Below are positions 415-30,592 of a DNA stretch of 32,000 nucleotides, piece after piece. Both the position numbers and the translations under genes were made by a program. The stretch is taken from positions 420,001 to 452,000 of the forward strand of contig AE017199.1 in the NCBI GenBank assembly GCA_000008085.1, written 5' to 3'. The notes beneath the pieces are model-generated. The model searched no databases. It was given only the letters and a program-made list of their open reading frames with translations, and was not told the DNA's origin. This stretch comes from Nanoarchaeum equitans Kin4-M. Lineage in GTDB: Archaea > Nanobdellota > Nanobdellia > Nanobdellales > Nanoarchaeaceae. Each line of letters begins with the position of its first letter. Position 1 is the first letter of the stretch.

Positions 415-502
415 AACCAGTTTAGCATAATTTTCGAGAATTTTGTTTGATTAAAACAAAACATTGTTGAAATATATTTAAAGAAAAGCTCTATTGTTGT
501 GT

Positions 503-6943: not shown

Positions 6944-6993
6944 ATATTTCGGTATCGATATTATTTATAAACACACTATTGATATTTTCAACA

Positions 6994-7401
6994 ATGGCTA
7001 AGGAATTCAGATACAAGGGATATACTTTACAAGAATTAGAGCAAATGTCTTTAGAGGAATTAGCTAAAATAATGCCTGCAAGGCAAAGGAGAACCTTATT
7101 GAGAAGGCTAAAGTTTGGATGGAGTGACCAACAAAAGAAGCTATTCAAGAAAATATTGTTAGCAAAAGAAGGTAAATACAAAAAACCAATAAAAACCCAC
7201 GCTAGAAACACAATAATATTGCCATTTATGGTTGGTGTTACAGTACATGTCTACAATGGAAAAGAATATGTCCCAGTTCAAATAAAACCAGAGATGATAG
7301 GCCATTATTTAGGGGAATTCAGCTTTACTACTAAGAGACCCAAGCACAGCGCCCCAGGTATAGGTGCAACAAGGTCTAGCGCGCACGTATCTAAGAAGTA
7401 A
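6994..7401 (+). CDS. rps19: 30S ribosomal protein S19 (uS19)
   Basis: [67 protein letters not shown] is the canonical uS19 core. The ORF opens at TTG 6979; ATG 6994 (MAKEFRYKG) is the more likely start. Confidence 0.95.
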
Positions 7402-7404
7402 AAT

Positions 7405-7413
7405 TTTTTAAAT
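7405..7413 (+). promoter_or_regulatory. TATA/box-A element of tRNA-Arg (TTTTTAAAT), ending 20 nt before G1
   Basis: TTTTTAAAT, then 19 nt, then G7433, which is mature tRNA position 1. The same box and spacing occur at the tRNA-Val, tRNA-Glu 5' half and sRNA genes. Confidence 0.7.
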
Positions 7414-7432
7414 AATATTTTTATCCAACTCT

Positions 7433-7506
7433 GGGCCCGTAGCTCAGCTTGGTAGAGCGGCGGCCTCCTAAGCCGTAGGTCGCGGGTTCGAATCCCGCCG
7501 GGCCCG
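7433..7506 (+). tRNA. tRNA-Arg (anticodon CCU), no encoded CCA
   Basis: Manual cloverleaf: GGGCCCG UA GCUC AGCUUGGUA GAGC G GCGGC CUCCUAA GCCGU AGGUC GCGGG UUCGAAU CCCGC CGGGCCC G. The next bases are GAA, so no CCA is encoded. Confidence 0.95.
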
Positions 7507-7511
7507 GAATA

Positions 7512-7520
7512 TTTTTAAAC
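7512..7520 (+). promoter_or_regulatory. TATA/box-A element (TTTTTAAAC) of the H/ACA-like sRNA
   Basis: TTTTTAAAC, then 19 nt, then G7540, the first base of the lower stem. The spacing is identical to that of the tRNA genes. Confidence 0.55.
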
Positions 7521-7539
7521 TCTTATATAAATATACGCT

Positions 7540-7599
7540 GCCCCGCTTGCCATGGTCGGCATGACAAAAAATGAATGCCGATCCTCCGGCGGGGCTACA
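7540..7599 (+). ncRNA. Candidate single-hairpin H/ACA box guide sRNA
   Basis: This is a GC-rich island in AT-rich DNA. The lower stem pairs 7540-7547 with 7588-7595 (GCCCCGCU/GGCGGGGC). The internal loop is 7548-7554 / 7583-7587. The upper stem pairs 7555-7562 with 7575-7582. The apical loop GACAAAAAAUGA can form tandem G.A pairs. An ACA box lies at 7597-7599, 14 nt from the top of the 3' pocket strand, followed by UUUGUUU. The pocket is complementary to 16S positions 13338-13350 of this window. Confidence 0.6.
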
Positions 7600-8287
7600 T
7601 TTGTTTCGCTAATAAATAAGTTTCCAAATATTTTTTCATCTTTTCCGCGATCTCTTTATCGATTTTTTCTATTTCTTCTATAGAGATTTCTTCAGGGGAT
7701 TTAAACTCTATTATATCTGGTATCTCGGCATCTGGTTTTAGTATTGTAACATGTATGCCTGCTACACCAGGTTTCAAATATGCTATGTTAAATGCCCTAT
7801 CCAATTCGAATTGGCCTATTGTTCCGGTTTTTCTTAGATTGCCGGCTTTGAAACGCCATGTTTTCCCTCTTTGTCCGGATAGCCTACCAGCAATTACTAT
7901 CTCTGCTCCTATAGCACCAGCATTCATTATTGTTTCTAAATATCTTTGTGCTAACCTTCTATAGGCTCTTATGTTTCTTTCTATACCCATGGCTAACCTT
8001 TCAGCAATGACATGTGCATCTAAATTGGGATTTTCTATGGGTAATACTTCTATTACTGGTTTTTCTAACCCGAATTTCAATTCTAATAGTTTAGCCAAAT
8101 GGGCTTTTCTCTCTTCACTAATCATCTTTGGTCTGGCAGAATAAATTATTACTCTATTAACTATAGGGGTTTGTCTTATTATTACTTTAGATACATTAGC
8201 GCCCCTTAAGTATAGCCTAATAAATTCCTGGCTAAATACTGTAAGTTTTGCATTTTGGATGAATTTCCTAATAACTTTGGATGCCAT
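7595..8287 (-). CDS. rps3: 30S ribosomal protein S3 (uS3)
   Basis: KH and S3-C pattern: ...VIIRQTPIVNRVIIYSARPKMI...AIGAEIVIAGRLSGQRGKTWRFKAGNLRKTG...AGIHVTILKPD. The ORF opens at TTG 8305. ATG 8287 (MASKVIRKF) lies 20 nt from the TATAAAAT box ending at 8307, so I prefer it. Confidence 0.93.
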   Translation of the reverse strand: MASKVIRKFIQNAKLTVFSQEFIRLYLRGANVSKVIIRQTPIVNRVIIYSARPKMISEERKAHLAKLLELKFGLEKPVIEVLPIENPNLDAHVIAERLAMGIERNIRAYRRLAQRYLETIMNAGAIGAEIVIAGRLSGQRGKTWRFKAGNLRKTGTIGQFELDRAFNIAYLKPGVAGIHVTILKPDAEIPDIIEFKSPEEISIEEIEKIDKEIAEKMKKYLETYLLAKQM

Positions 8288-8381
8288 TTGTAAAGCTTTT
8301 TGCAATATTTTATAAATTCACACCTGTTATTACCACTATCTCTTAATAAACATTTTTAAATAATAGATATATTTTTTACCT

Positions 8382-11896: not shown

Positions 11897-11906
11897 ATTT
11901 AAAAAA
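11897..11906. promoter_or_regulatory. Shared A/T box (ATTTAAAAAA) for the divergent rpl18e and Zn-ribbon genes
   Basis: On the plus strand, TTTAAAA ends at 11904, 20 nt before ATG 11924. On the minus strand, TTTTTTAAAT ends at 11897, putting +1 at 11877, 1 nt before ATG 11876. Confidence 0.5.
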
Positions 11907-12098: not shown

Positions 12099-12107
12099 TT
12101 TTTAAAG
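12099..12107 (+). promoter_or_regulatory. Candidate 16S rRNA promoter box (TTTTTAAAG)
   Basis: The same box type as elsewhere in the window. The +20 rule predicts a start near A12127, at the onset of the GC-rich leader. A second box, TATAAAAT (12110-12117), would predict about 12137. Confidence 0.4.
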
Positions 12108-12226
12108 GGTATAAAATATTACTCGCAAGGCACCCGCGGTAAGCTCGCCGGGATGATTAATGATTCCCGGTATCCAACCGCGGGTACAGGAGTGCGGCAG
12201 AGACCTTCGGGTCTCTGCCAAGGGAA

Positions 12227-12248
12227 GAGCCCGGCACAGGGAGACCGC
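12227..12248 (+). other. 5' strand of the 16S rRNA processing stem
   Basis: GAGCCCGGCACAGGGAGACCGC is the perfect reverse complement of 13832-13853 (22/22 bp). The two strands bracket the mature 16S. Confidence 0.85.
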
Positions 12249-12324
12249 ATTTTTCTTTGCGGCCGTGCTCCCTGGGTCCCCGAGTGGGATAAGGGCCCAG
12301 GGAGGCGGGGTTTTATTCCCCCGC

Positions 12325-13826
<1,502 letters not shown>

Positions 13827-13831
13827 GTAAA

Positions 13832-13853
13832 GCGGTCTCCCTGTGCCGGGCTC
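13832..13853 (+). other. 3' strand of the 16S rRNA processing stem
   Basis: GCGGUCUCCCUGUGCCGGGCUC pairs perfectly with 12227-12248. Confidence 0.85.
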
Positions 13854-13859
13854 CCAAAT

Positions 13860-14228
13860 GTGATACTAAACAAATTCGTTTATGACATACTCTCTTTATT
13901 TCTATTCTCGTTAGGATTAGCCCTAATTGGCACAATTATTTCTTCTATAAAAACCCAAACTAAGCAATATTTAGATCAATATTTATCCCTATGGTGTGCG
14001 AGTGGCAAAATCTATAAAAGCCAATACAAAACTTTCTCCCAATATTTGCCAAAAGATCATTATTTGTATTGTAAAAAAGAGGGAACAATAAAACTCTATA
14101 TCGCAAAAGGTAGTAATACTTTTCTATCAAAGAAATGTGATTTGTTAAAAATAGAGATTATAAAGGATAAAAGTAGAAGCGAAGTTACATGCGATAGTGA
14201 GATCAATATTAGCAAGTATTTCCAATAA
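13860..14228 (+). CDS. Questionable hypothetical protein (122 aa) with an N-terminal hydrophobic segment
   Basis: The ORF has a GTG start 7 nt after the rRNA processing stem. No A/T promoter box lies 20 nt upstream, because that position is inside the GC-rich trailer. The N-terminus is ILSLFLFSLGLALIGTIISSI. Coding status is uncertain. Confidence 0.35.
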   Translation: MILNKFVYDILSLFLFSLGLALIGTIISSIKTQTKQYLDQYLSLWCASGKIYKSQYKTFSQYLPKDHYLYCKKEGTIKLYIAKGSNTFLSKKCDLLKIEIIKDKSRSEVTCDSEINISKYFQ

Positions 14229-14259: not shown

Positions 14260-15666
14260 ATGGTAGAAAGGATAGTCCTAACATTCATAGCTATAATTGG
14301 GAGCATACAGATTTTGAAAGAACATTTAAATTTAATCTATACCTCTGCAATCGCTTATTCTCTAATTCCTATTCTAATTGTATCCTATACATTATCAAAA
14401 GAAGTATATTCTTTGCATGAAGCACTTTATAAGAAGCACAAATTATTGGGATTTTTGGCCCAGTGGTTCTCTATTCTATTGCTTAGCTCTTTGGCCGCAG
14501 CAGCGATTAAAGATCATCATGCATGGATAATAATATTGCTATTCTCACTAATCTATTTGATAGATGAAAGTATCTTTTTAGAATTCTTAGCATTGCTAGG
14601 CATAATATCTTTTTTAATTCCAGGTTTAGAACAAACTCCCTTTATAGTTATAACAGAGCCAACAATCATTATTTTTAGTATATATGTAACATTGAAAACT
14701 CTACTTAACTGGGATGTTTCTTATATTATGAGGACAACAAAATTTTTACCAATACTATTGGTTTTAGGTATAATAGTTGGATCTATAACCAAAGGCATAT
14801 CGTATTTAACATTAATTGTGTCTGCTTTGATTTGGCTATACACAAGCGCAAAAATTTTTTATAATAACAAAATCGCCTTTCTCGCAATTATTGGTTTAGC
14901 TTTTTTCTTATCTCTGTTAGATACGCATACCATATTAGTAACAACTAGCATAGCAATATATGTAATGCTAATAATATATTTCTTATTCAAAAGCAAACTT
15001 CAAAAATTGGTTGGCCTATTTTTAGCATTAATAATTGGGTATGTTGCCCTTCGATATAATATAATACAACAAGCGTTTTTACCTTTGGTAACCTACACTT
15101 TATTGGGTTTAATAGTCTATGCAATATTAAACATAAAAGATAAAGCAATTGTAAGCTTTTTACATAACGCGTTTTTCTTTTTAATTGCCCTTAGCGAACC
15201 ATTATGGAAAGATCCTTCGTATCTATACTATATAAGAGATAAAAGAAGAGTATTAGAAGTAGGTTTTGGTACAGGCTATATTACCAAACATTTAAACAAA
15301 AACCATGAAGTCGATGGTAGTGAGATAAGTATTATAGAATTGTTTTTCGCTAAACTTAGATTTTTATTTTCAAAGAAAAAACCTTATCTATTCTTAGATG
15401 AAAAAGATAGGATTAGTATTAACAAAAAATACGATGCTATTGTGGGGTATGGAGTAATAGGATATATAAAAGATATAAAAACTTTTGCTAGAGATATTGT
15501 TAATCATTTAAATGAAAATGGCAAAATTTTATTTGTTGATTTCTCAAAAGAAGATTTGGATAGACTATCAAAAGAGCTAGAAAAGCTTGGCGTAAAAACT
15601 CAAATAGAAATAAAAAACAAAAAACTATGGCGAGAATATATCTTAAAGGGTATAAAGGTGTTATAA
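14260..15666 (+). CDS. Polytopic membrane domain fused to a C-terminal class I SAM-dependent methyltransferase (468 aa)
   Basis: About 310 aa of consecutive hydrophobic helices come first. They are followed by Rossmann methyltransferase motifs: VLEVGFGTGYITKHL (motif I), VDGSEIS (post-I), YDAIVGYGVIGYI and NENGKILFVDF. Confidence 0.8.
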   Translation: MVERIVLTFIAIIGSIQILKEHLNLIYTSAIAYSLIPILIVSYTLSKEVYSLHEALYKKHKLLGFLAQWFSILLLSSLAAAAIKDHHAWIIILLFSLIYLIDESIFLEFLALLGIISFLIPGLEQTPFIVITEPTIIIFSIYVTLKTLLNWDVSYIMRTTKFLPILLVLGIIVGSITKGISYLTLIVSALIWLYTSAKIFYNNKIAFLAIIGLAFFLSLLDTHTILVTTSIAIYVMLIIYFLFKSKLQKLVGLFLALIIGYVALRYNIIQQAFLPLVTYTLLGLIVYAILNIKDKAIVSFLHNAFFFLIALSEPLWKDPSYLYYIRDKRRVLEVGFGTGYITKHLNKNHEVDGSEISIIELFFAKLRFLFSKKKPYLFLDEKDRISINKKYDAIVGYGVIGYIKDIKTFARDIVNHLNENGKILFVDFSKEDLDRLSKELEKLGVKTQIEIKNKKLWREYILKGIKVL

Positions 15667-16618: not shown

Positions 16619-16673
16619 CCGGGGCAGTGGGATCGAAAACCCCGTATGCTAGACCTGGCTACACCACGGGGGC
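16617..16673 (-). tRNA. Split tRNA gene: tRNA-Glu(UUC) 5' half (positions 1-37, 16673->16634) plus a GC-rich 3' pairing tail (16633->16617)
   Basis: The minus strand reads GCCCCCG UG GUGU AGCCAGGUCUA GCAU A CGGGG UUUUCG, then AUCCCACUGCCCCGGCU AUUUU. There is no 3' anticodon-stem strand, variable loop or T arm. The TTTTTAAAT box lies 20 nt upstream of G1. Confidence 0.85.
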
Positions 16674-16692: not shown

Positions 16693-16701
16693 ATTTAAAA
16701 A
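16693..16701 (-). promoter_or_regulatory. TATA/box-A element (TTTTTAAAT) of the tRNA-Glu 5' half
   Basis: On the minus strand: TTTTTAAAT, then 19 nt (GCTCTCTAATTTTACTCTA), then G16673, which is position 1. Confidence 0.7.
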
Positions 16702-19438: not shown

Positions 19439-20923
19439 TTATTGATCTTCGTCTTTATTATCTTCAACCTCTAAATAATATAAATCATGGTGGGGTGCAT
19501 CCGCTAACATTGCTATATCGTTGGGCCTATTCTTATAATGGGCCATAATATATATTCCAACAAATTGCCTTAACTTCTCTTCTTGGTTTAGAATGAAATC
19601 TCTTTTGTCCGGTTTAACTAATTTTGGATTTGTGGGGTTTTCTATTTTGGCCGGCTCAGCATCTAATAACAATACATCATACATAAACCTTTCTACAGGG
19701 TCGTCTATGGCATATCTTATAGGCTCTTTCATTTTATGCTCTATAACCATTAGATTGGGGTTTTCCTTTAGCGCTTTCAAAAATCTAACATTAAATGTTC
19801 TACCCGCCCCTTCATAACCATGTATGGTTGTAGAGAATACCAATCTATCGTATTTGTTCATTATTTTATACAAATATGTTACATATACTCCTGCAGCTTC
19901 ATCGACAGCAACTAAATCATATTTTCTTTTAACCAAATCTTGCGGTTGCTTATACTCTATAATTACTTTCCCAGCTTTTATTTTGTTCTTTTTTTCTTCA
20001 TATTTTAGCTCTAACTTTTCCAAAGCTTTTTTCAAAAATTCCCATAGCGATTCTATGTTACCTCTATTCGGTGCAGTTATCCCAATATAGAACGGTTTTT
20101 TATAAAAAACATATGTAATTCCCGCTATCCCCAAACCAACTGCTACGGATTTTCCCCTACCTCTATCGGCAGTTAAAACATAAGCTATCTCTTTATTAAC
20201 AAGGTTTTCGAATTTTTTTAATGCCTCTGCTTGGTCTTTTGTTACGCACATCCCATATAGCTTTTTGGGAAAAACCTCTCCATAAACTCTATGGAATTCT
20301 GCTTTTGGAGGAGCAACATCTTTTTCGTTCTCTATATATTTTATCGCTTTTTCTTTGTCTGTATCATATATATAAACTTCGTGTTCAAACAATTTTTTAA
20401 CCCACCTTTCTTCGAAATAATGCTTTACATCCTTTATAGTATAGGGAGGTGTAACCAAATGTTCATGGAATGTTGTTATTATTTTATCCCATTTATCAAT
20501 AGAGGGAGCTAAAGCGATTATTAATCCAGTGCCTCTAACTAAACCGAATAGCCTTCCCAAATCATCTGGGGTTAGAGAGTTGGTTAAATCCATAATAAGA
20601 ATATCATAAGTTTTACCTAATACCTTTTGAGTTTCTTTAAAATATATTCTATCGAGTTTTGCTCCCTTTAAATTAGTATTTTCTATAAAATATTGATATC
20701 TTCTAATGTTTTGTTCTCTGTCTTCGCTTACATATAATACTTGGGGTTTTACTCTAAGCTCTTTTTGATATCTAATAGCATTTTCTATTATTCCTGGCAA
20801 TGGTTTTTCAGGGTTTTTTCCCGATAATATGATAAATGATCTCCAATAATGTTCTATAGCCCTAGCTTGAGCATTATCGAATACTATTTTTAGATCGCCT
20901 TTTAAGTTAGAGTCGATGCGCAT
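19439..20923 (-). CDS. tmcA: TmcA/NAT10-type tRNA cytidine acetyltransferase, DUF1726 plus helicase/ATPase portion only; the GNAT domain is missing
   Basis: It has LTADRGRGKSVAVG (Walker A of TmcA/Kre33), LVAVDEAA, STTIHGYEGAGRTF and HYKNRPNDIAMLADAPHH. The ORF stops about 15 aa after this last motif, where the acetyltransferase domain normally begins. Confidence 0.85.
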   Translation of the reverse strand: MRIDSNLKGDLKIVFDNAQARAIEHYWRSFIILSGKNPEKPLPGIIENAIRYQKELRVKPQVLYVSEDREQNIRRYQYFIENTNLKGAKLDRIYFKETQKVLGKTYDILIMDLTNSLTPDDLGRLFGLVRGTGLIIALAPSIDKWDKIITTFHEHLVTPPYTIKDVKHYFEERWVKKLFEHEVYIYDTDKEKAIKYIENEKDVAPPKAEFHRVYGEVFPKKLYGMCVTKDQAEALKKFENLVNKEIAYVLTADRGRGKSVAVGLGIAGITYVFYKKPFYIGITAPNRGNIESLWEFLKKALEKLELKYEEKKNKIKAGKVIIEYKQPQDLVKRKYDLVAVDEAAGVYVTYLYKIMNKYDRLVFSTTIHGYEGAGRTFNVRFLKALKENPNLMVIEHKMKEPIRYAIDDPVERFMYDVLLLDAEPAKIENPTNPKLVKPDKRDFILNQEEKLRQFVGIYIMAHYKNRPNDIAMLADAPHHDLYYLEVEDNKDEDQ

Positions 20924-20954
20924 TTGGTTATAAATAAATAGTATTTATGAATGA

Positions 20955-22679
20955 ATGAAGATTAGGCAACCTATAATTACTATATTGGGACATGTAGACC
21001 ATGGTAAAACCACACTGTTAGACAAAATTAGAAAAACAGCAGTGGCACAAAAAGAAGCTGGGGGCATTACCCAACATATTGGAGCAACAGAAGTCCCTAT
21101 AGAGGTTATAGAAAAGATAGCAGAGCCAATAAGAGATATTTTAAAGTTCGAACTAAAAATACCGGGTTTGTTATTTATAGACACCCCTGGCCACGAAGCT
21201 TTTAGCAATTTAAGAAAGAGAGGCGGTTCTATTGCAGATTTAGCTATTGTTGTTATAGACATAAACGAAGGGATTATGCCCCAAACTAAAGAAGCAATTG
21301 AAATATGTAAACAATTTAGAGTTCCATTTATTATTGCTGCTAATAAAATAGACAAAATCCCTGGATGGGAATCAAGAGAAGGATCTTTCATAAAAAATTA
21401 CCAAAGGCAAAGTGATAGGGCGAAACAAGAATTAGAAAATAGAGTATACAATTTAGTTTCCCAATTATATGAATTGGGTTTCGAATCGGATATATTTTTT
21501 AGAATAGAAGATTTTAGGAAAACAGTTGCAATTGTTCCAGTATCAGCAAAAACTGGCGAAGGAATTCCAGAATTATTATTACTAACAGCAGGTTTAGCTC
21601 AAAGATTTCTAACAAAGAAATTAGAGATTGATGAAAACTCTCCTGGAAAAGGGGTTATATTAGAGAAGAAAAAAGATAAAGGTATATATTATTTGGATGT
21701 CATTTTATATGATGGTGTTATAAGGAAAGGAGATACTATCGCTTTTTATGGTATTGAAGGGCCAATAATAACAAAAGTAAGGGGTTTATTTAAAGCGAAG
21801 CCTTTGACAGAGATTAGGGAAAAATCCAATTTTATTCCAGTAAACGAAGCACATGCCGCAGCGGGTATTAGAATATTAACTCCAGAAAACGATAAAGCTT
21901 TGGCAGGTTCCCCATTATATGTTATTAGAAATAACCAATCTAAAATATTGGAACAAATTAAAGAAGAGATAAGCTCTATAGTATTTGAAGAAAAAGAGGG
22001 TTTAGTAGTGAAAGCCGATACATTAGGAACTTTGGAAGCAATAGTTAATATACTAAAATCTAAAGGAATAAAGGTTTCAAAAGCAGGTATTGGAGAGATA
22101 ACAAAAGAAGATATAATTAAAGCACAATCGCAAAAAGATGAAAAGTATAGAGTTATATTGGCTTTTAATGTTAGCCCTATTGAAAGCCCAGTTCCAATAA
22201 TTTATGACAATGTTATCTATAGGTTATTAGAGAAATACGAAGAGTTTTTGAAGCAATTAGAAGAACAAAAGAAGCTTTCTATATTAGATAGATTAACTCC
22301 TGTAGCAAAAATAGAGATAATTCCTGGTTTAGTATTTAGAAGGAAAGACCCAGCAATAGTTGGAGTTAAAGTTATTGGCAAAATAAAGCCCAATGTTTTA
22401 TTAATGAACGAAGAAGGAAAAATAATCGGAAGAGTAAAATCAATACAAAAAGAAGGAGTATCCTTAAAAGAAGCAGAAAATGATGAAGTAGCTATAGCCA
22501 TAGAAGGAGTTACTGTTGGTAGGCAAATAAAAGAAGGAGATACATTATATACTTACATTAGAGAAGAAGAATTTAAAGAATATAAAAAGCATAAAGATTT
22601 GTTAAATGAAACTCAAAAAACCATTTTAAAAGAAATAGCACAAATAATGAGAAAACAAAACCCCACTTGGGGGCTCTAA
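20955..22679 (+). CDS. infB: Translation initiation factor aIF5B (IF-2 family GTPase)
   Basis: QPIITILGHVDHGKTTLLDKIR...GGITQHIGA...FIDTPGHEAF...ANKIDK gives G1-G4, followed by the beta-barrel domains. The TTATAAAT box ends at 20935, 20 nt before the ATG. Confidence 0.95.
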   Translation: MKIRQPIITILGHVDHGKTTLLDKIRKTAVAQKEAGGITQHIGATEVPIEVIEKIAEPIRDILKFELKIPGLLFIDTPGHEAFSNLRKRGGSIADLAIVVIDINEGIMPQTKEAIEICKQFRVPFIIAANKIDKIPGWESREGSFIKNYQRQSDRAKQELENRVYNLVSQLYELGFESDIFFRIEDFRKTVAIVPVSAKTGEGIPELLLLTAGLAQRFLTKKLEIDENSPGKGVILEKKKDKGIYYLDVILYDGVIRKGDTIAFYGIEGPIITKVRGLFKAKPLTEIREKSNFIPVNEAHAAAGIRILTPENDKALAGSPLYVIRNNQSKILEQIKEEISSIVFEEKEGLVVKADTLGTLEAIVNILKSKGIKVSKAGIGEITKEDIIKAQSQKDEKYRVILAFNVSPIESPVPIIYDNVIYRLLEKYEEFLKQLEEQKKLSILDRLTPVAKIEIIPGLVFRRKDPAIVGVKVIGKIKPNVLLMNEEGKIIGRVKSIQKEGVSLKEAENDEVAIAIEGVTVGRQIKEGDTLYTYIREEEFKEYKKHKDLLNETQKTILKEIAQIMRKQNPTWGL

Positions 22680-23179
22680 ATTAGGTCTATAATTGTTTTA
22701 TTTTCGAAATCATTTTCCTTTAGAATTTGCAAGGCTATCTTATTTATTGGCAACCAAGGGTATTTTTTCTTTATTTCACTTAAATCTGCTTCATTTAAAA
22801 TTATTTTTTCTAACAAATTAGGATCATTGTTTTTTAGAAACAAATACACAAAATAAGCTATAAGCTTATTGGCTATTGATTGCTTATCAATAGTCTGGTT
22901 TTCGCAATTTTTTAATCTTTTCAAACAATCTATGTTGCTTTTTAAACTCTCTATGGATTCTAACTTTTTCTCTAAAATAGCTTTTTTCCTTTGCAATATC
23001 TCTATTTTATAATTAATTTCTTCTATTTTTTCTTTAGTTCTAAGGATTTCCAATTTTTTTATAAAATCGTCGAATTCTAAAATGTATTCTAATGTTTCTC
23101 CCATTGATTTGAAACCTAATTCTTGTGTTAGCAATTGTAGTTTCTCTTTTACTCTAGGTGGAACTCTAATGTGTGTCAC
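22676..23179 (-). CDS. Hypothetical protein with an N-terminal ribbon-helix-helix-like segment and a coiled coil (167 aa)
   Basis: IRVPPRVKEKLQLLTQELGFKSMGETLEYILE resembles a CopG/Arc RHH (beta-alpha-alpha). It is followed by a coiled coil (KIEEINYKIEILQRKKAILEKKLESIE). GTG start. Its stop overlaps the infB stop convergently. Confidence 0.5.
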   Translation of the reverse strand: MTHIRVPPRVKEKLQLLTQELGFKSMGETLEYILEFDDFIKKLEILRTKEKIEEINYKIEILQRKKAILEKKLESIESLKSNIDCLKRLKNCENQTIDKQSIANKLIAYFVYLFLKNNDPNLLEKIILNEADLSEIKKKYPWLPINKIALQILKENDFENKTIIDLI

Positions 23180-23206
23180 TTTTATATTAATATAAAGTAC
23201 ATTTAA

Positions 23207-23608
23207 ATGCGCTATGAATTGAGATTATATAAAGAGTTGTCTTTTAAAGAAATAGAAAAAATAGGCGAATTTCTTTTTGGGGTTAATAGAGAATATGATT
23301 TGCTAAAAAAATACAACATAAAACCTTTGTATATCGATACCCCATTGGAATATAAAGAGTATCCCACAATCACAGCTTTGTTTTTATTAAAGGATTTGGC
23401 CAAAGACAAAGTTTATTTAGACGAAGTAGGAGCTAGAGATTTTATCTATGGAAAGGATGTACATCAAAAGAATTTTCTCAAAATAGAAGGCTACAAATAC
23501 GCTAATTTATTAGTTTTAAATGGCCAGGGATTACCTTTAGGTATTGGAAAAATTAAAGGCAAAATATTGAAAAACCTATTTAATATAAGTTTTTATAGGA
23601 GATACTAA
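23207..23608 (+). CDS. Small putative RNA-binding protein with a C-terminal PUA-like domain (Nip7/UPF0113-like impression, 133 aa)
   Basis: The C-terminus (GARDFIYGKDVHQKNF...LLVLNGQGLPLGIGKIKGKILKNLFNISFYRR) resembles the PUA modules of Nip7-type proteins. This assignment is tentative. Confidence 0.45.
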   Translation: MRYELRLYKELSFKEIEKIGEFLFGVNREYDLLKKYNIKPLYIDTPLEYKEYPTITALFLLKDLAKDKVYLDEVGARDFIYGKDVHQKNFLKIEGYKYANLLVLNGQGLPLGIGKIKGKILKNLFNISFYRRY

Positions 23609-24747: not shown

Positions 24748-24819
24748 TGGGCCCGCGGGGATTCGAACCCCGGACCTCCGCCTCGTGAGGGCGGCGTCAT
24801 ACCCCTAGACTACGGGCCC
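24748..24819 (-). tRNA. tRNA-Val (anticodon CAC), no encoded CCA
   Basis: The minus strand reads GGGCCCG UA GUCU AGGGGUA UGAC G CCGCC CUCACGA GGCGG AGGUC CGGGG UUCGAAU CCCCG CGGGCCC A. Its 3' end directly abuts the stop codon of the convergent LamG gene. Confidence 0.95.
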
Positions 24820-24838: not shown

Positions 24839-24846
24839 ATTTAAAA
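24839..24846. promoter_or_regulatory. Single palindromic TATA box (ATTTAAAA / TTTTAAAT) shared by tRNA-Val (left) and thpR (right)
   Basis: On the minus strand, TTTTAAAT ends at 24839, 20 nt from tRNA-Val G1 (24819). On the plus strand, TTTAAAA ends at 24846, 20 nt from the thpR ATG (24866). Confidence 0.6.
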
Positions 24847-25850: not shown

Positions 25851-26086
25851 TCTTTTAGAGCTTTTTCTAATTTTTTGTCCTCCAAGCTAACCCATATAAA
25901 TAAAATACCTAAAGGTAAAACTGTTAAAAAGAACAATACTAAAAATGGATAAAGCATTATAGTAATTACATCCATTCCTATTTTATCCGCTATAGTCAAA
26001 GATATTTGATAATAATAATACAAAGCCACATAAGCTATTATTAATAAGGAGAGCCCAATTAAGAACTCTTTTTGATAGTCCTTCAC
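25826..26086 (-). CDS. Small membrane protein (86 aa, 2-3 TM helices)
   Basis: Hydrophobic helices (FLIGLSLLIIAYVALYYYY, ITIMLYPFLVLFFLTVLPLGILFIWV). GTG start; the TTTTTAAAT box ends at 26107 on the minus strand, putting +1 at 26087. It overlaps the CorA-like gene by 25 nt. Confidence 0.45.
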   Translation of the reverse strand: MKDYQKEFLIGLSLLIIAYVALYYYYQISLTIADKIGMDVITIMLYPFLVLFFLTVLPLGILFIWVSLEDKKLEKALKEWLEKENL

Positions 26087-26122
26087 AACAAATTCTTTTA
26101 AAAAATATTTAAAAATTTTGTA

Positions 26123-27190
26123 ATGATAACCCTAGTTGGGTATGAATTAATCGATGGCATTACTGGTAAAAACGATCCCATATTATTGAAAATCTATGTT
26201 TATTCGAATGAAAACAAATACATAGTTATTGACACCGATAGAACCAAATGGTTTGGGAACCTTCCAATTATAATAGAGCCCAAAGGTTTAAGAAACATAA
26301 CTATAAAAGCTGTTCCAAGGAAATGCTATAGCTTTTTTCCATTGTATATAAACGACCAAAAATATCTAATCCCAGTATATTGTAAAGAAGTAAAAAAAGA
26401 AGAAGAGAAAAAAGAGTATTACGATGTAAATGTTTCTATCAATGATACTATAAAGGTTTGTGTAAATGGCCAATTTAATAACCTAAAATATTTAGTTAGG
26501 ATTGATGATAGAAAGTATTCTGGTTTAATTCCTTTTCCAACTTGTTTGGAGTTTCCTAAAAATGAAAGCCCTGGGAAGCATAATGTTTATGTATCAATAC
26601 AAAATAGTAAAACAATAGAGAAAGAATTAACATACTATGTTAAACCCATATTCTTTTATACCATAAACTATAAACCAAAAATCGGGTTATTAAAAGAGGA
26701 AATAGAAATAATACTAAAAACCTATGGCAATACCAAAGGGAAAGTTGAATTTTGTGCAAAAGATTTGTGCATAAAAGGAGAATTCCCTCCAAATATAGAG
26801 AGAGTTTATAGAGTAAAATACGACTATAGCTTGTATTTTGCTATAGGCTTAATAGCAGGTTTGTCTTTGTTGGGATTGTATTATTATTTAAACAAAAAAA
26901 GAATAAAAGTTAACAAAAATTATACTTTGGAAGGCAATATAGTAAAAGTAACCTTAGAGATAACAAACAAATCCTTGTTTAGGGTTAAAGGCTATATTTT
27001 AGATCCTATTCCTAAGGATGCAGAAGTAGAGATATTAACTAACAACGCCAAAATAAAAGACATCGCCGGAAACAAATTTGTTTATGCGATATATGATTTA
27101 ATGCCTGGAGAAACATTAGTTATAGCTTATAAATTAAAAATGCCTTTCGAAATAACAGAAATCGATTTGCCAAAACCTATTGTTCTTTGA
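26123..27190 (+). CDS. Hypothetical single-pass membrane protein (355 aa)
   Basis: Long ORF whose ATG is exactly 20 nt after a TTTAAAA box ending at 26103. One central TM helix (LYFAIGLIAGLSLLGLYYYL) is flanked by beta-rich domains. No family recognised. Confidence 0.6.
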   Translation: MITLVGYELIDGITGKNDPILLKIYVYSNENKYIVIDTDRTKWFGNLPIIIEPKGLRNITIKAVPRKCYSFFPLYINDQKYLIPVYCKEVKKEEEKKEYYDVNVSINDTIKVCVNGQFNNLKYLVRIDDRKYSGLIPFPTCLEFPKNESPGKHNVYVSIQNSKTIEKELTYYVKPIFFYTINYKPKIGLLKEEIEIILKTYGNTKGKVEFCAKDLCIKGEFPPNIERVYRVKYDYSLYFAIGLIAGLSLLGLYYYLNKKRIKVNKNYTLEGNIVKVTLEITNKSLFRVKGYILDPIPKDAEVEILTNNAKIKDIAGNKFVYAIYDLMPGETLVIAYKLKMPFEITEIDLPKPIVL

Positions 27191-29789
27191 AAATTTTTTC
27201 CACATTTAATTTTCCTCCTTCAGATTTTTGTACAGCTATTCCATCTTCTCCCCAAATAAATTGGTATATGTTACCAAAAGTGTCTCTAACGGTTCTATCA
27301 TTTTCTACATATAGATCTCTTAATACTGAGACCAACCTTCTATATAGATAACCGCTCTTTGGTGTTCTTAAAGTTGTATCCATTAGTGCATCTTTACCAG
27401 ATGCAGCATGGAAGAAGAACTCTATTGGGTCTAACCCATCTGCAAAACCATGTTCTACAAAACCCCTAGCTTTTGCGCTTTTGTCCCCTTTCTTAAAGTG
27501 GGGCAATACCCTATCTTTATAACCTTCTTCCATTCTTCTTCCAGAAATTGATTGTTGGCCAACCAATCCTACAACTTGTATTAAGTTTAATAGCTTACCT
27601 CTTGCTCCAGATTTAGCTAAAATCATTGTACCTTTAGTTGGGTCTACATGTTTCTCTATTACCTCTCCAACTTCGTCTCTAGCTTTGTTTAGAACTTTCA
27701 ATATTTCTATTTCTAATGTTTCCTCTATAGTTCTACCAGGCAATGGTTTTATTTCTCCTTTTTTGTATCTCTCAATCAAATTATCTACTTCTTTTTTGGC
27801 TTTTTCAATAATTTTTCTTATTTGTTCTTTAACTTCTTTTGGAATATCGATATCGGAAAAACTAATAGTTAATTGCTCTCTAGTCAAATAATTAACAGAC
27901 AACCTGGTTACATCGCTAAGCCATTTGAATGTAAATTCAGGGCCATATCTTTCAAATAATTCTCTAATTAGTTTTCCCTTTTCTACACCAACTATTTCTT
28001 TGTCTATTACTCCTTTTAATAGTATGCCATTTTTTATAACAAATTCTCCATTTTTTGTTTTTATTTCGAAATCTAAATCATCTGGCAACAAAGCAGAAAA
28101 TACTTCTTTGCCAGTCAAATAATCTCTTCCCTCCTTTTTGGCTTTTTCTACTAGTTTTAATATTTTGTCTTTTCCAAAATATTTGCAATTGTATTCAATT
28201 AATTGTATTGCATCTTTGAAAGGAATTTTATCTTTTAAGGATAACAAATATAGCCCTGTAATTATGTCTTCTGTGGCTCCAATAATGGCTAACCCATACC
28301 TTGGAGTAACTATATGTTCTCTAACATTTGCTAAAAATTCTATTTCTGTTTTACCTTCGTAGTTTTGTACTAAATGGTAATTCATTTCATCTCCATCAAA
28401 ATCAGCATTGTATGGGGTAGTAGTTGCAGGGTTTAGCCTAAATGTTTTGCCTGGCAATATAACAGATCTATGCCCCATCATAGACATTTTATGCAAAGAT
28501 GGTTGTCTATTGAACAAAGCGTAATCGCCATTAATAATATGTCTCTCAACAACCCAACCTGGCTCTAATCTTTCGGCTAATTCTTCTTTATTTTCTTCCA
28601 TTATTTTGAATCTCCTACCATTGGGGTCTATAACATAGTTTGCCCCATCTAAAGATTCGGGTCCATTCAATACTTTTTGTTTTAGCCAATCCAAATTCCA
28701 TTCTGTTACTATTTCAGGGAATGTTAACTCTTTCGCTACTTGTTCTGGTACACCAACTTCGTCTATATCTATTCTTGGGTCTACACTAATTACTCCCCTC
28801 GCAGAAAAGTTAACTCTCTTTCCAGCTAAGTTTCTCCTTAGCCTACCTTCCTTTCCTTTTATTCTTTGTAACAAACCTTTTAATGGTCTCCCACTTCTAT
28901 GCCTAGCTTTTGGTACATTAGGTAATTCGTTATCGAAATAGGTAGCAACATGGTATTGAAGCATTTCCCAGTTTTCTTCTAAAATTGGCTCTGGTGCTCC
29001 ATAGGATAATAATTCTTCAATCCTATTATTAATCCTAACTATATCTGCTATTTTATGAGTTAAATCGTCTTCACTTCTTTCTCCGGTTTCTAATATTATA
29101 GATGGCCTAGCCGTAACTGGGGGCACTAATATAACAGTTAAAACTAGCCATTCTGGCCTTCCATTTATTATGCCAAACAATTTAGCATCTTCGTCTGGTA
29201 TTTTTTCTAACCATTGCCTTACATCTAAAGGAGTTAGTTTAACCCATTCTTCTTTATCGCCTATCTTTTCTTTTATATAGAAATACCATGGTTTTTCGAA
29301 TTTTATTTCTTTTAGTTCTGCATTACAGTATGGGCATTTCTTATGCTTTTTCCTGTATTCATTTATTTTCGGAATTACTGTGGATTGGATGAAATTGCTT
29401 AACTCATCATATTTGCCTTCATTAATATATTCGTTTATCTTTTTTAGGAATTGTTCTTTAAGCTTTTGAGGTATTATTGCTCTTCCACATTTTGGGCATG
29501 TGTATTGTAATAATCTTTTTATTTCGTTTAGGAATTTTACATGGTATACAGGGCGAGCCAATTCTATCCTACCAAAATGTCCTAAGCATTCACCATATTT
29601 GCCCCCACAGGTTTTACATCTTAAACCAGGGTCAATGACACCCATCCTAGGATCCATGGGGCCATTTTCTATTGGGAGACCATCCCTATCGTATGGCTCT
29701 GGTATTTTAACTTCAACAACAGACAGTTTCCTTATAACTTCTGGATCCAAAGGTCTAAGATCTATTAAACCTAACTTTTTTATTTCCAC
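27177..29789 (-). CDS. rpoA1: DNA-directed RNA polymerase subunit A' (Rpo1N)
   Basis: Zn site CKTCGGKYGECLGHFGRIELARPVYHV, plus RRNLAGKRVNFSARGVISVDP and the catalytic NADFDGDEMN. GTG start, 20 nt from the TTTAATT box ending at 29809. Confidence 0.97.
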   Translation of the reverse strand: MEIKKLGLIDLRPLDPEVIRKLSVVEVKIPEPYDRDGLPIENGPMDPRMGVIDPGLRCKTCGGKYGECLGHFGRIELARPVYHVKFLNEIKRLLQYTCPKCGRAIIPQKLKEQFLKKINEYINEGKYDELSNFIQSTVIPKINEYRKKHKKCPYCNAELKEIKFEKPWYFYIKEKIGDKEEWVKLTPLDVRQWLEKIPDEDAKLFGIINGRPEWLVLTVILVPPVTARPSIILETGERSEDDLTHKIADIVRINNRIEELLSYGAPEPILEENWEMLQYHVATYFDNELPNVPKARHRSGRPLKGLLQRIKGKEGRLRRNLAGKRVNFSARGVISVDPRIDIDEVGVPEQVAKELTFPEIVTEWNLDWLKQKVLNGPESLDGANYVIDPNGRRFKIMEENKEELAERLEPGWVVERHIINGDYALFNRQPSLHKMSMMGHRSVILPGKTFRLNPATTTPYNADFDGDEMNYHLVQNYEGKTEIEFLANVREHIVTPRYGLAIIGATEDIITGLYLLSLKDKIPFKDAIQLIEYNCKYFGKDKILKLVEKAKKEGRDYLTGKEVFSALLPDDLDFEIKTKNGEFVIKNGILLKGVIDKEIVGVEKGKLIRELFERYGPEFTFKWLSDVTRLSVNYLTREQLTISFSDIDIPKEVKEQIRKIIEKAKKEVDNLIERYKKGEIKPLPGRTIEETLEIEILKVLNKARDEVGEVIEKHVDPTKGTMILAKSGARGKLLNLIQVVGLVGQQSISGRRMEEGYKDRVLPHFKKGDKSAKARGFVEHGFADGLDPIEFFFHAASGKDALMDTTLRTPKSGYLYRRLVSVLRDLYVENDRTVRDTFGNIYQFIWGEDGIAVQKSEGGKLNVEKIFKEQ

Positions 29790-29824
29790 TCGAAAGTATT
29801 TATTAGGGAATTAAAGCCTTTCAT

Positions 29825-30592
29825 ATGAGAATTAGGTTGCCTTTGTATAAACCTATTAAAGAAGTGGCAGAAGATTATTATAACAAAGCCAAAAAAATTA
29901 AAGAAAAAATTGAAAGAGCCAAAGCTTTGTTAAATGAAGAACTAAAAAAAGAAGAAAGAAAAAAGAAAGAAATAAAAAAGGAATGGTTTATGAAGTATAG
30001 ATTTACTTTTACTGAAAGCGGTTTTTTAGTTATTGGAGGAAAGGATGCTAACCAAAATGAAAGAATAATGAAAGTTTATAGAAAGGATGGCGATTTGGTA
30101 TTCCATGCCGATATACATGGGGCACCATTCGCTTTAATGTTATTGAATAACCCCAATGCAGATAGCGTTGAAGAAGTTATAGAAAAATATAAAATAACGG
30201 AAACCGATTTAATGCAAGCAGCAGGTTTAAGTGCTGTATATTCTAAAGCATGGCAAGAAGGCTTAGCTTCGATAGATGTTTTCTATGTTTTGGGCAAGCA
30301 AATCTCTAAAAAAGCTCCTTCTGGAGAATATCTAAAGCATGGTTCCTTTATGGTTTATGGCAAAAAACATTATATTAGGGTGCCTTTGAGATTATACATA
30401 GTAGAAAAAGAAAAGGTCTATGCTGTGCCTTCCATTTATAATGGGGACAAATACATAGAATTAATTCCTGGCGATATTAAGAAAGAAAAGATAGCGAAAA
30501 AAATTGCAGAATTATTAAATGTTAGCGAAGATTACATAAAATCGCTTTTGCCTTCAGGTTATTTCAGAATTACCAAGATTAAAAATATTTGA
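29825..30592 (+). CDS. NFACT-R (DUF814) domain protein: C-terminal half of an Rqc2/FbpA/NEMF-type protein (255 aa)
   Basis: A coiled-coil N-terminus is followed by FLVIGGKDANQNERIMKVYRKDGDLVFHADIHGAPFALM, the DUF814/NFACT-R signature. The NFACT-N domain is not present in the ORF. Confidence 0.72.
   Translation: MRIRLPLYKPIKEVAEDYYNKAKKIKEKIERAKALLNEELKKEERKKKEIKKEWFMKYRFTFTESGFLVIGGKDANQNERIMKVYRKDGDLVFHADIHGAPFALMLLNNPNADSVEEVIEKYKITETDLMQAAGLSAVYSKAWQEGLASIDVFYVLGKQISKKAPSGEYLKHGSFMVYGKKHYIRVPLRLYIVEKEKVYAVPSIYNGDKYIELIPGDIKKEKIAKKIAELLNVSEDYIKSLLPSGYFRITKIKNI

Follow-up and report, generated by a model that had tools for sequence, protein, structure and literature searches.

TATA-like boxes at a fixed distance before RNA genes and most first genes of transcription units in a 32-kb stretch of the Nanoarchaeum equitans genome

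The window, that is the whole stretch of 32,000 nucleotides analysed here, corresponds approximately to NC_005213 420001-452000 of Nanoarchaeum equitans Kin4-M and has a G+C content of 31%. It contains two tRNA genes, one half of a split tRNA gene and a lone 16S rRNA gene (12326-13825), the latter with 63% G+C. The identification as N. equitans is confirmed by a 36-nt poly-purine string, assigned by Randau 2012 to NC_005213 449944-449989, which occurs without mismatch at 29944-29979 of the window. Metagenome contigs that are 99.95-100% identical to the window exist. Before the RNA genes, and before most of the protein genes that come first in their transcription units, a TATA-like box is found at a fixed distance; this arrangement is real and far above chance. 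The spacing pattern is already known, being the published account of how N. equitans lives without RNase P, and its reading from the bare sequence is a correct rediscovery.

RNA genes and their promoters

The RNA genes of the window and the boxes assigned to them are as follows.

7400-7413, plus strand: promoter of tRNA-Arg, with a BRE-like A-rich stretch (7400-7404) followed by TTTTAAAT (7406-7413); the hexamer (7407-7412) lies at -26 from G7433
7433-7506, plus strand: tRNA-Arg(CCT) (Rfam 74 bits, ARAGORN), with the predicted start at G7433, its first mature position; no CCA is encoded
7512-7520, plus strand: TTTTTAAAC, at once the T-run right after tRNA-Arg (likely terminator) and box A of the sRNA (hexamer 7514-7519)
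7540-7599, plus strand: sRNA with single-hairpin H/ACA guide architecture, assigned on fold and guide pairing; ACA at 7597-7599, then TTTGTTT at 7600-7606
12101-12106, plus strand: box A of the 16S rRNA unit; predicted start A12127, ~200 nt before mature 16S (12326)
16694-16699, minus strand: box A (TTTAAA) of the tRNA-Glu(UUC) 5' half
16621-16673, minus strand: tRNA-Glu(UUC) 5' half, with positions 1-37 at 16673-16637, then a 16-nt GC-rich trailer and a T-run
24748-24819, minus strand: tRNA-Val(CAC) (Rfam); G24819 is mature position 1

In all four small RNA genes TTTAAA starts at -26 from mature position 1, which is always a G. The sequence-only reading had described an octamer, TTTTAAAT or TTTTAAAC, that ends 20 nt before G7433 of tRNA-Arg, G7540 of the sRNA, G16673 of the tRNA-Glu 5' half and G24819 of tRNA-Val (the last two on the minus strand). 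This is confirmed, and each of its 18 pairs of box and target coordinates is present in the sequence as given. Counting both strands, the window has only 18 copies of TTTTAAA followed by T or C, and the naive chance that four of four RNA genes carry the box at one fixed offset is ~6e-15. At all three tRNA loci of the window the distance is such that the predicted start coincides with mature position 1. By comparison, 9 of 18 control tRNA genes from other archaea have a recognisable exact TATA-like hexamer, located at -29 to -69 and in no case at -26.

[quoted passage not shown] The leaderless reading of the tRNAs, with box A at this distance and transcription starting at mature +1, is identical to this model. 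The system studied by Randau in 2008 and 2012 concerns the same organism and the same genes, with box A at -26, a purine at +1 and no leader (PMC3491384), and the three tRNA loci do not differ from it in any respect. The published sRNA tables do not include the sRNA at 7540, which nevertheless obeys the rule stated there for the known H/ACA sRNA. The hexamer lies at -26 in five of the six sRNAs of Randau 2012 (Additional file 2) that have promoters of their own and 5' ends determined by RNA-seq. Altogether, the 26-nt spacing was calibrated on ten RNA 5' ends of the N. equitans genome, taken from genes of the window and from the sRNAs of Randau 2012. A search for RNase P RNA gave no match within the 32-kb window. 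Split tRNA-Glu genes and RNase P loss are features of N. equitans that do not occur in its Yellowstone relative Nst1 (PMC3655853).

The tRNA-Glu 5' half is matched at 16673-16644, over 30 of 30 nt, by a published forward primer for RT-PCR of N. equitans tRNA (PMC2761253); its 3' half was searched for within the window and is absent from it. The 16S rRNA is the sole RNA gene of the window with a leader, which is structured and ~200 nt long, and a processing stem is formed between 12230-12249 and 13832-13851.

Stretches of T have been described as terminators in N. equitans (PMC3491384). The T5 run at 7512-7516, where termination of tRNA-Arg is expected, is part of the sRNA box, and it is probably both terminator and part of a promoter. 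The possibility that the boxes are mere terminators was rejected, since the other boxes have no co-directional gene end upstream. A scan for bacterial sigma-70 promoters was empty, and is irrelevant here.

Boxes in front of protein genes

TTTAAA with at most one mismatch starts at -28 to -25 in 21 of 32 protein starts (66%), compared with 6.5% of 2478 other start-type codons (ATG, GTG or TTG) (binomial P ~7e-18). The 11 boxless starts comprise seven operon-internal genes, which overlap or abut an upstream co-directional gene, three first genes (MTase at 14260, tmcA at 20923 and NFACT-R at 29825) with degenerate A/T hexamers that have two mismatches at the right place, and one wrong start. The latter belongs to a 140-aa ORF that is rps19; its real start is ATG 6994 (MAKEF...), with TATAAA at -28, and the TTG 6979 of the longest ORF is rejected. 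Once this start is corrected, the box is found in 22 of the 25 first genes and in none of the seven operon-internal genes. In an unconstrained PWM scan, 20 of the 25 first genes had their best box at -25 to -28; the boxes of the rpoA1/NFACT-R pair obtained higher scores when read in the opposite orientation.

By best alignment, the hexamer of the 25 first genes lies at -26 in ~11 genes, at -27 in seven, at -28 in five and at -25 in two. The box end is accordingly exactly 20 nt from the start codon in ~11 genes, 21-22 nt in 12 and 19 nt in two, a spread of ~1.5 nt. The initial statement that the box ends exactly 20 nt ahead holds for the RNA genes and for these ~11 protein genes and has to be relaxed by 1-2 nt for the others; likewise, its extension to most start codons stands for first genes and fails for operon-internal ones. 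The individual boxes named for protein genes are all there, with their ends and the targets 20 nt away at 483 and 503 (cdc48), 6963 and 6943 (pheT), 8307 and 8287 (rps3), 8361 and 8381 (tfe), 11904 and 11924 (Zn ribbon), 11897 and 11877 (rpl18e), 15657 and 15677 (trxB), 20935 and 20955 (infB), 23657 and 23677 (LamG protein), 24846 and 24866 (thpR), 26103 and 26123, 26107 and 26087, 29805 and 29825 (NFACT-R), and 29809 and 29789 (rpoA1). Conversely, the 12 intergenic sites with an exact TTTAAA are all located 26 nt (+0 to 2) before the start of a feature or are the 16S promoter (12101-12106).

Examples of boxes with one or two targets are listed below.

477-482, plus strand: box A of cdc48, 26 nt before ATG 503
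8355-8360, plus strand: box A of tfe, 27 nt before GTG 8382
6964-6971: palindromic TTTATAAA common to pheT (ATG 6943, minus) and rps19 (ATG 6994, plus)
11898-11903: palindromic TTTAAA common to rpl18e (ATG 11876, minus, at -27) and the Zn-ribbon ORF (ATG 11924, plus, at -26)
24840-24845: palindromic TTTAAA common to tRNA-Val (G24819, minus) and thpR (ATG 24866, plus), at -26 from both
26097-26113: two interdigitated TTTAAA, 26097-26102 for orf355 (ATG 26123) and 26108-26113 for an 86-aa ORF (GTG 26086, minus)

The logo of 30 aligned promoters consists of an A-rich stretch, then TT, TWTAAA and T. The BRE-like element, in which A occupies hexamer positions -7 to -3 in 14-19 of the 30 promoters, provides a weak orientation signal at the shared palindromic boxes. 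TTTAAA itself is palindromic, and the direction of transcription is unreadable from the box alone. The features expected of promoters are thus found together: a box ~26 nt upstream, a purine-rich BRE and a purine at the start, with G at +1 of all four small RNAs.

Three divergent pairs (tRNA-Val/thpR, rpl18e/Zn-ribbon and pheT/rps19) have one palindromic box each, and in four further divergent pairs the starts are merely 27-36 nt apart and the boxes interdigitated. A symmetric TATA box that drives both strands, with starts 49 bp apart, has been described in Pyrococcus furiosus (Grunberger 2019, PMC6640164). The N. equitans pairs are alike in that one palindromic TTTAAA or TTTATAAA would serve both strands, with starts 47, 48 and 51 bp apart. 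In P. furiosus, bidirectional transcription yields mostly non-functional antisense RNA, whereas in N. equitans both products appear to be functional genes and both are predicted to be leaderless.

Several readings compete with that of promoters placed for leaderless transcription. The boxes might be chance A/T octamers of an AT-rich genome, aligned through 1-2 nt of freedom and through the choice of start codons, and the 31% G+C of the genome, the degeneracy of the protein-gene boxes and the fact that ATG 503 and ATG 8287 had been chosen partly by the box rule itself all speak in this direction. This explanation has been refuted by the controls, and its probability is close to nil: besides the low background at other start-type codons and the absence of boxes at operon-internal genes, after shuffling of the upstream regions a box is found at 3.1 starts on average and at 10 at most, never at the observed 21, a mechanical ORF caller that is blind to the box produces the peak again (20, 17, 23 and 11% of ORFs at -28 to -25, and 0-6% at offsets from -60 to -29), and independent gene calls agree on the starts. 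The comparison of box-to-start distances with background, proposed in the sequence-only reading, thereby reveals an enrichment of the spacing in the window. AT-richness as the source of an artefact was rejected on the same kind of control, as the peak at protein starts is weaker and shifted in 31 AT-rich loci from other archaea, DPANN for the most part (10, 16, 16 and 11% at -30 to -27, against a background of 3-5%). Since that peak is weaker and ~2 nt further upstream, AT-richness does not create the one seen here; it is also clear that leaderless mRNAs are common in archaea.

A different objection accepts the promoters as real and holds that most mRNAs have leaders of 3-8 nt, the start on protein genes being nearer to the box than on RNA genes. 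The spread of offsets from -25 to -28, the A at -1 of many start codons, which would allow initiation 1 nt upstream, and the ORF at 46, where a box at -34 implies a leader of ~8 nt, are compatible with it. It is nevertheless very unlikely, given the calibration of the spacing (26 nt) against ten RNA 5' ends in the same genome, predicted leaders of 0-2 nt that are too short for a Shine-Dalgarno site, and the lack of TTG starts among the box-associated genes. Somewhat less improbable, but still unlikely, is the view that the sRNA at 7540 is released by RNase Z from a tRNA-Arg-sRNA dicistron and is not an independent leaderless transcript. The sRNA begins just 33 nt after the tRNA, and tRNA-sRNA dicistrons exist in N. 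equitans, for example tRNA-Val/sRNA8 and also sRNA3 (PMC3491384). However, it has an exact TTTAAA of its own at -26 and a G at +1, as do the published H/ACA sRNA and sRNA12, 13, 16 and 21; a T5 run of the N. equitans terminator type separates it from the tRNA; and cleavage by RNase Z at the tRNA 3' end would leave a 5' extension of 33 nt.

Predicted transcription starts and leaderless mRNAs

The reading retained is that ordinary TBP/TFB promoters are very probably placed so that transcription begins at the first functional nucleotide, namely +1 of tRNAs and sRNA, and the start codon or 1-2 nt before it in protein genes. The core promoter would be of the ordinary archaeal type, with an A-rich BRE-like stretch followed by TT-TWTAAA-T, and RNA polymerase would start 26 nt downstream of the hexamer's first T. 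This start would be mature position 1, always G, in tRNAs, tRNA halves and the H/ACA sRNA, which would have no 5' leader, and tRNAs made in this way do not need RNase P. Most transcription units would start at the first base (A or G) of their first gene's start codon, or 1-2 nt ahead of it, and their mRNA would be leaderless. Operon-internal genes have no box, and the 16S rRNA would use the same box but keep a processed leader of ~200 nt. The distance from box to transcription start is the universal archaeal TATA-TSS distance; what is special is the zero length of the leader.

The geometry of the boxes, its statistics, the lack of boxes at internal genes and in the controls, and the conservation of the geometry in the nearest relatives are direct observations, and the mRNA start sites are derived from box spacing. 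The mRNAs of most first genes are probably leaderless, with predicted leaders of 0-2 nt when the box-to-start distance of 20-22 nt is measured against the 26 nt calibrated on RNA 5' ends. The suggestion of leaderless mRNAs made from the sequence has statistical support and agrees with the published prediction that 71.8% of N. equitans genes are leaderless, the highest proportion among the archaea surveyed (Zheng 2011, PMC3160421). Box-associated starts are only ATG or GTG, and never TTG, in keeping with the need for a purine as the codon's first base if transcription is initiated there. In archaea with leaderless mRNAs, the box is similarly located ~26 nt before first genes, is missing at internal genes and is usable for calling starts (PMC6028130, PMC3160421). 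The peak at protein starts is at -26 to -27 in N. equitans, versus -28 to -30 in the 31 AT-rich loci of other archaea and in the more distant relatives described below.

Box position had also been put forward as a means of choosing between start codons, and it works: for rps3, an independent gene caller also selects ATG 8287. The criterion is already known, as GeneMarkS-2 (group D) recognises leaderless genes by a box at ~26 nt from their start (PMC6028130). What is added for N. equitans is that mRNAs would follow the same logic as tRNAs, together with a practical means of fixing start codons in this organism, such as ATG 6994 of rps19.

The rule that every tRNA is transcribed from its first mature base would explain the loss of RNase P, an enzyme that is, to our knowledge, otherwise universal. 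The leaderless tRNA genes of N. equitans were reportedly described by Randau, Schroder & Soll in 2008 ('Life without RNase P'), which is said to be a landmark result; RNA-seq confirmed them in 2012 (Randau 2012, PMC3491384). Deriving it again from raw sequence adds little to it.

H/ACA-like RNAs and uncultured relatives

Beside the sRNA at 7540-7599, two positions matter for the H/ACA-like RNAs of the window.

13343, plus strand: 16S U1018, predicted pseudouridylation target of the sRNA
12132-12188, plus strand: H/ACA-like hairpin at the 5' end of the 16S leader; ACA at 12186-12188

The sRNA at 7540-7599 would fold into a lower stem of 8 bp, a pocket, an upper stem of 8-9 bp and a GA/GA K-loop, with -30.4 kcal/mol and z = -4.45 for the MFE structure. 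The K-loop reads GGCAU-GA-CAAAAAAU-GA-AUGCC and may be a site for L7Ae. From the top of the pocket to ACA there are 14 nt (5 of guide, 8 of stem and 1), and the canonical distance is 15 nt (PMC2377435). The guide pairs at 11 of 11 positions around 16S U1018 (GGAGG-UG-CAUGGCC), a match attained by 0.9% of guides after shuffling and by 0.24% of random ones. This uridine is the homologue of U1017 in the 16S rRNA of P. abyssi, the target of Pab19, and lies in the same UGC context.

Pab19/Pfu19 is an H/ACA sRNA of Pyrococcus (Muller 2008, PMC2377435). The N. equitans sRNA shares with it the design of a single-hairpin H/ACA guide and a predicted target, the homologous 16S uridine within GGAGG-UGC-AUGG (U1017 in P. 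abyssi, U1018 in N. equitans), whereas homology between the two sequences is undetectable. In Pab19 the 5' guide is 15 nt long, the UGC bulge is non-canonical and there is an additional 5' stem-loop; in the N. equitans sRNA, canonical pairing is possible, with UN unpaired and 5 + 6 bp. The published table for N. equitans contains a single H/ACA sRNA, at 339411-339574 (Randau 2012, PMC3491384), and 7540-7599 is absent from the sRNA list in its Additional file 2. Searching Rfam with a permissive threshold at 7400-7700 gave snoR2 as the best match, at 21.3 bits and under the gathering score of 44. No homologue of the sRNA for covariation was found in ~110 kb of relatives' loci, no exact match in genome contigs (which seemingly do not include the source genome), and no paper tying N. 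equitans to a Pab19-like guide in a literature search. The window thus offers a pointer to an uncatalogued H/ACA guide RNA.

The hairpin of the 16S leader starts 5 nt after the predicted 16S start. It comprises a 9-bp lower stem, a pocket, a 7-bp upper stem and a UGA..UGA K-loop, and within the 16S rRNA, the only RNA searched, it has no target at n-1 pairs or better.

Relatives of N. equitans were approached in several ways. A search of genome contigs with infB gave relatives of at most 53% identity, which were used as controls, and one of metagenome contigs with rps3 gave only relatives of 32-35% identity; closer ones were found through homologues of rps3 and trxB. In the nearest (trxB 67% identical), GCA_054016815.1 and a hydrothermal-vent metagenome, three of three distinct tRNAs, tRNA-Ala(GGC), tRNA-Phe and tRNA-Leu(CAA), are preceded by TTTTAAA followed by C or G, 19 nt and the G. 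In more distant relatives (61-62% identity), 23-24 nt separate the box from +1 in four of four tRNAs, which implies predicted tRNA leaders of 4-5 nt. The RNase P protein p29 is encoded in one of the two more distant lineages (L097/L098).

A tentative joint reading, given slightly less than an even chance, is that N. equitans has at least one, perhaps two, H/ACA guides beyond the single catalogued one, namely the leaderless 60-nt sRNA at NC_005213 427540-427599, directed to 16S U1018 in helix 34, and the 16S-leader hairpin at 12132-12188, and that its leaderless-tRNA geometry is shared by an uncultured marine clade. As for the latter part, the tRNA spacing of the nearest relatives suggests that the exact geometry is not confined to strain Kin4-M and extends to uncultured marine relatives, and it could help to date the loss of RNase P within Nanoarchaeota. 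If this is true, sister lineages with tRNA leaders of 4-5 nt, one of them with RNase P p29, would bracket the time at which RNase P became dispensable. Protein starts also show a peak in both groups, at -26 to -30 in the nearest relatives and at -27 to -30 in the more distant ones.

Promoters of divergent genes

By sequence, three pairs of divergent leaderless genes appear to be driven by a single palindromic TATA box each:

6964-6971, common palindromic TATA box of pheT/rps19, predicted starts 51 bp apart
11898-11903, common palindromic TATA box of rpl18e/Zn-ribbon, predicted starts 48 bp apart
24840-24845, common palindromic TATA box of tRNA-Val/thpR, predicted starts 47 bp apart

This arrangement is similar to that of P. 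furiosus bidirectional promoters, in which starts are separated by 49 bp, the predicted distance in the N. equitans pairs being 47-51 bp. In the window, the start codons of four divergent pairs are just 27-36 nt apart, so that the box of each gene lies beyond that of its partner and the promoters are interdigitated:

20923-20955, interdigitated-promoter pair
23179-23207, interdigitated-promoter pair
26086-26123, interdigitated-promoter pair
29789-29825, interdigitated-promoter pair

The box of a 167-aa ORF (23202-23207) overlaps the ATG of the adjoining UPF0113 gene. Compaction of another kind is seen at the end of tRNA-Arg, where the T5 run directly 3' of the gene (within 7512-7520) probably serves as a terminator and also belongs to box A of the gene that follows; this 9-nt element may thus unite the end of one transcript and the start of the next.

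Start codons and exceptions to the promoter rule

The longest ORF at 6979-7401 (140 aa) corresponds to ribosomal protein S19 (rps19), and its start, judged from the promoter rule as well as from MAKEF as N-terminus, is ATG 6994 rather than TTG 6979. Two ORFs are exceptions. For ORF 46-414 the box is at -34, which implies a leader of ~8 nt. The 122-aa ORF at 13860-14228, immediately past the 16S processing stem, is devoid of a box and is not called as a gene on the longest metagenome contig; accordingly, it is possibly no gene at all, or else may be co-transcribed with 16S rRNA.

Candidate H/ACA RNAs

7540-7599 (NC_005213, about 427540-427599), plus strand, sRNA with single hairpin, K-loop and 3' ACA
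12132-12188, H/ACA-like hairpin with a pocket between stems of 9 bp and 7 bp, a UGA..UGA K-loop and ACA

From its predicted fold, the sRNA is a putative single-hairpin H/ACA guide, the pocket of which forms 11/11 pairs around its predicted target, 16S U1018 (window 13343), the same site as that guided by Pyrococcus Pab19. The sRNA table published for N. equitans (Randau 2012) does not include it; the sole H/ACA sRNA there is another one. The second hairpin begins 5 nt past the predicted 16S leader start, and a target sought in 16S rRNA was not found. A snoRNA has likewise been reported inside the 16S leader of T. kodakarensis.

Uncultured relatives and public metagenomes

Loci of uncultured relatives reached through rps3 or trxB homologues were compared:

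L093, 13033-13105
L094, 7335-7408 and 13954-14038
L096
L097, 10963-11038

Relatives with 67% trxB identity have the exact box + 19 nt + G at 3/3 tRNAs, as in N. equitans. At 61-62% identity the spacing is 23-24 nt in 4/4 tRNAs, and one of the two lineages (L097/L098) encodes RNase P protein p29. Metagenome contigs L001-L006, from several public assemblies (ENA ERZ926314; Logan ERR1254320 and ERR9765743; JGI 3300014779 and 3300004930), are 99.95-100% identical to the window; these data sets thus contain DNA of N. equitans.
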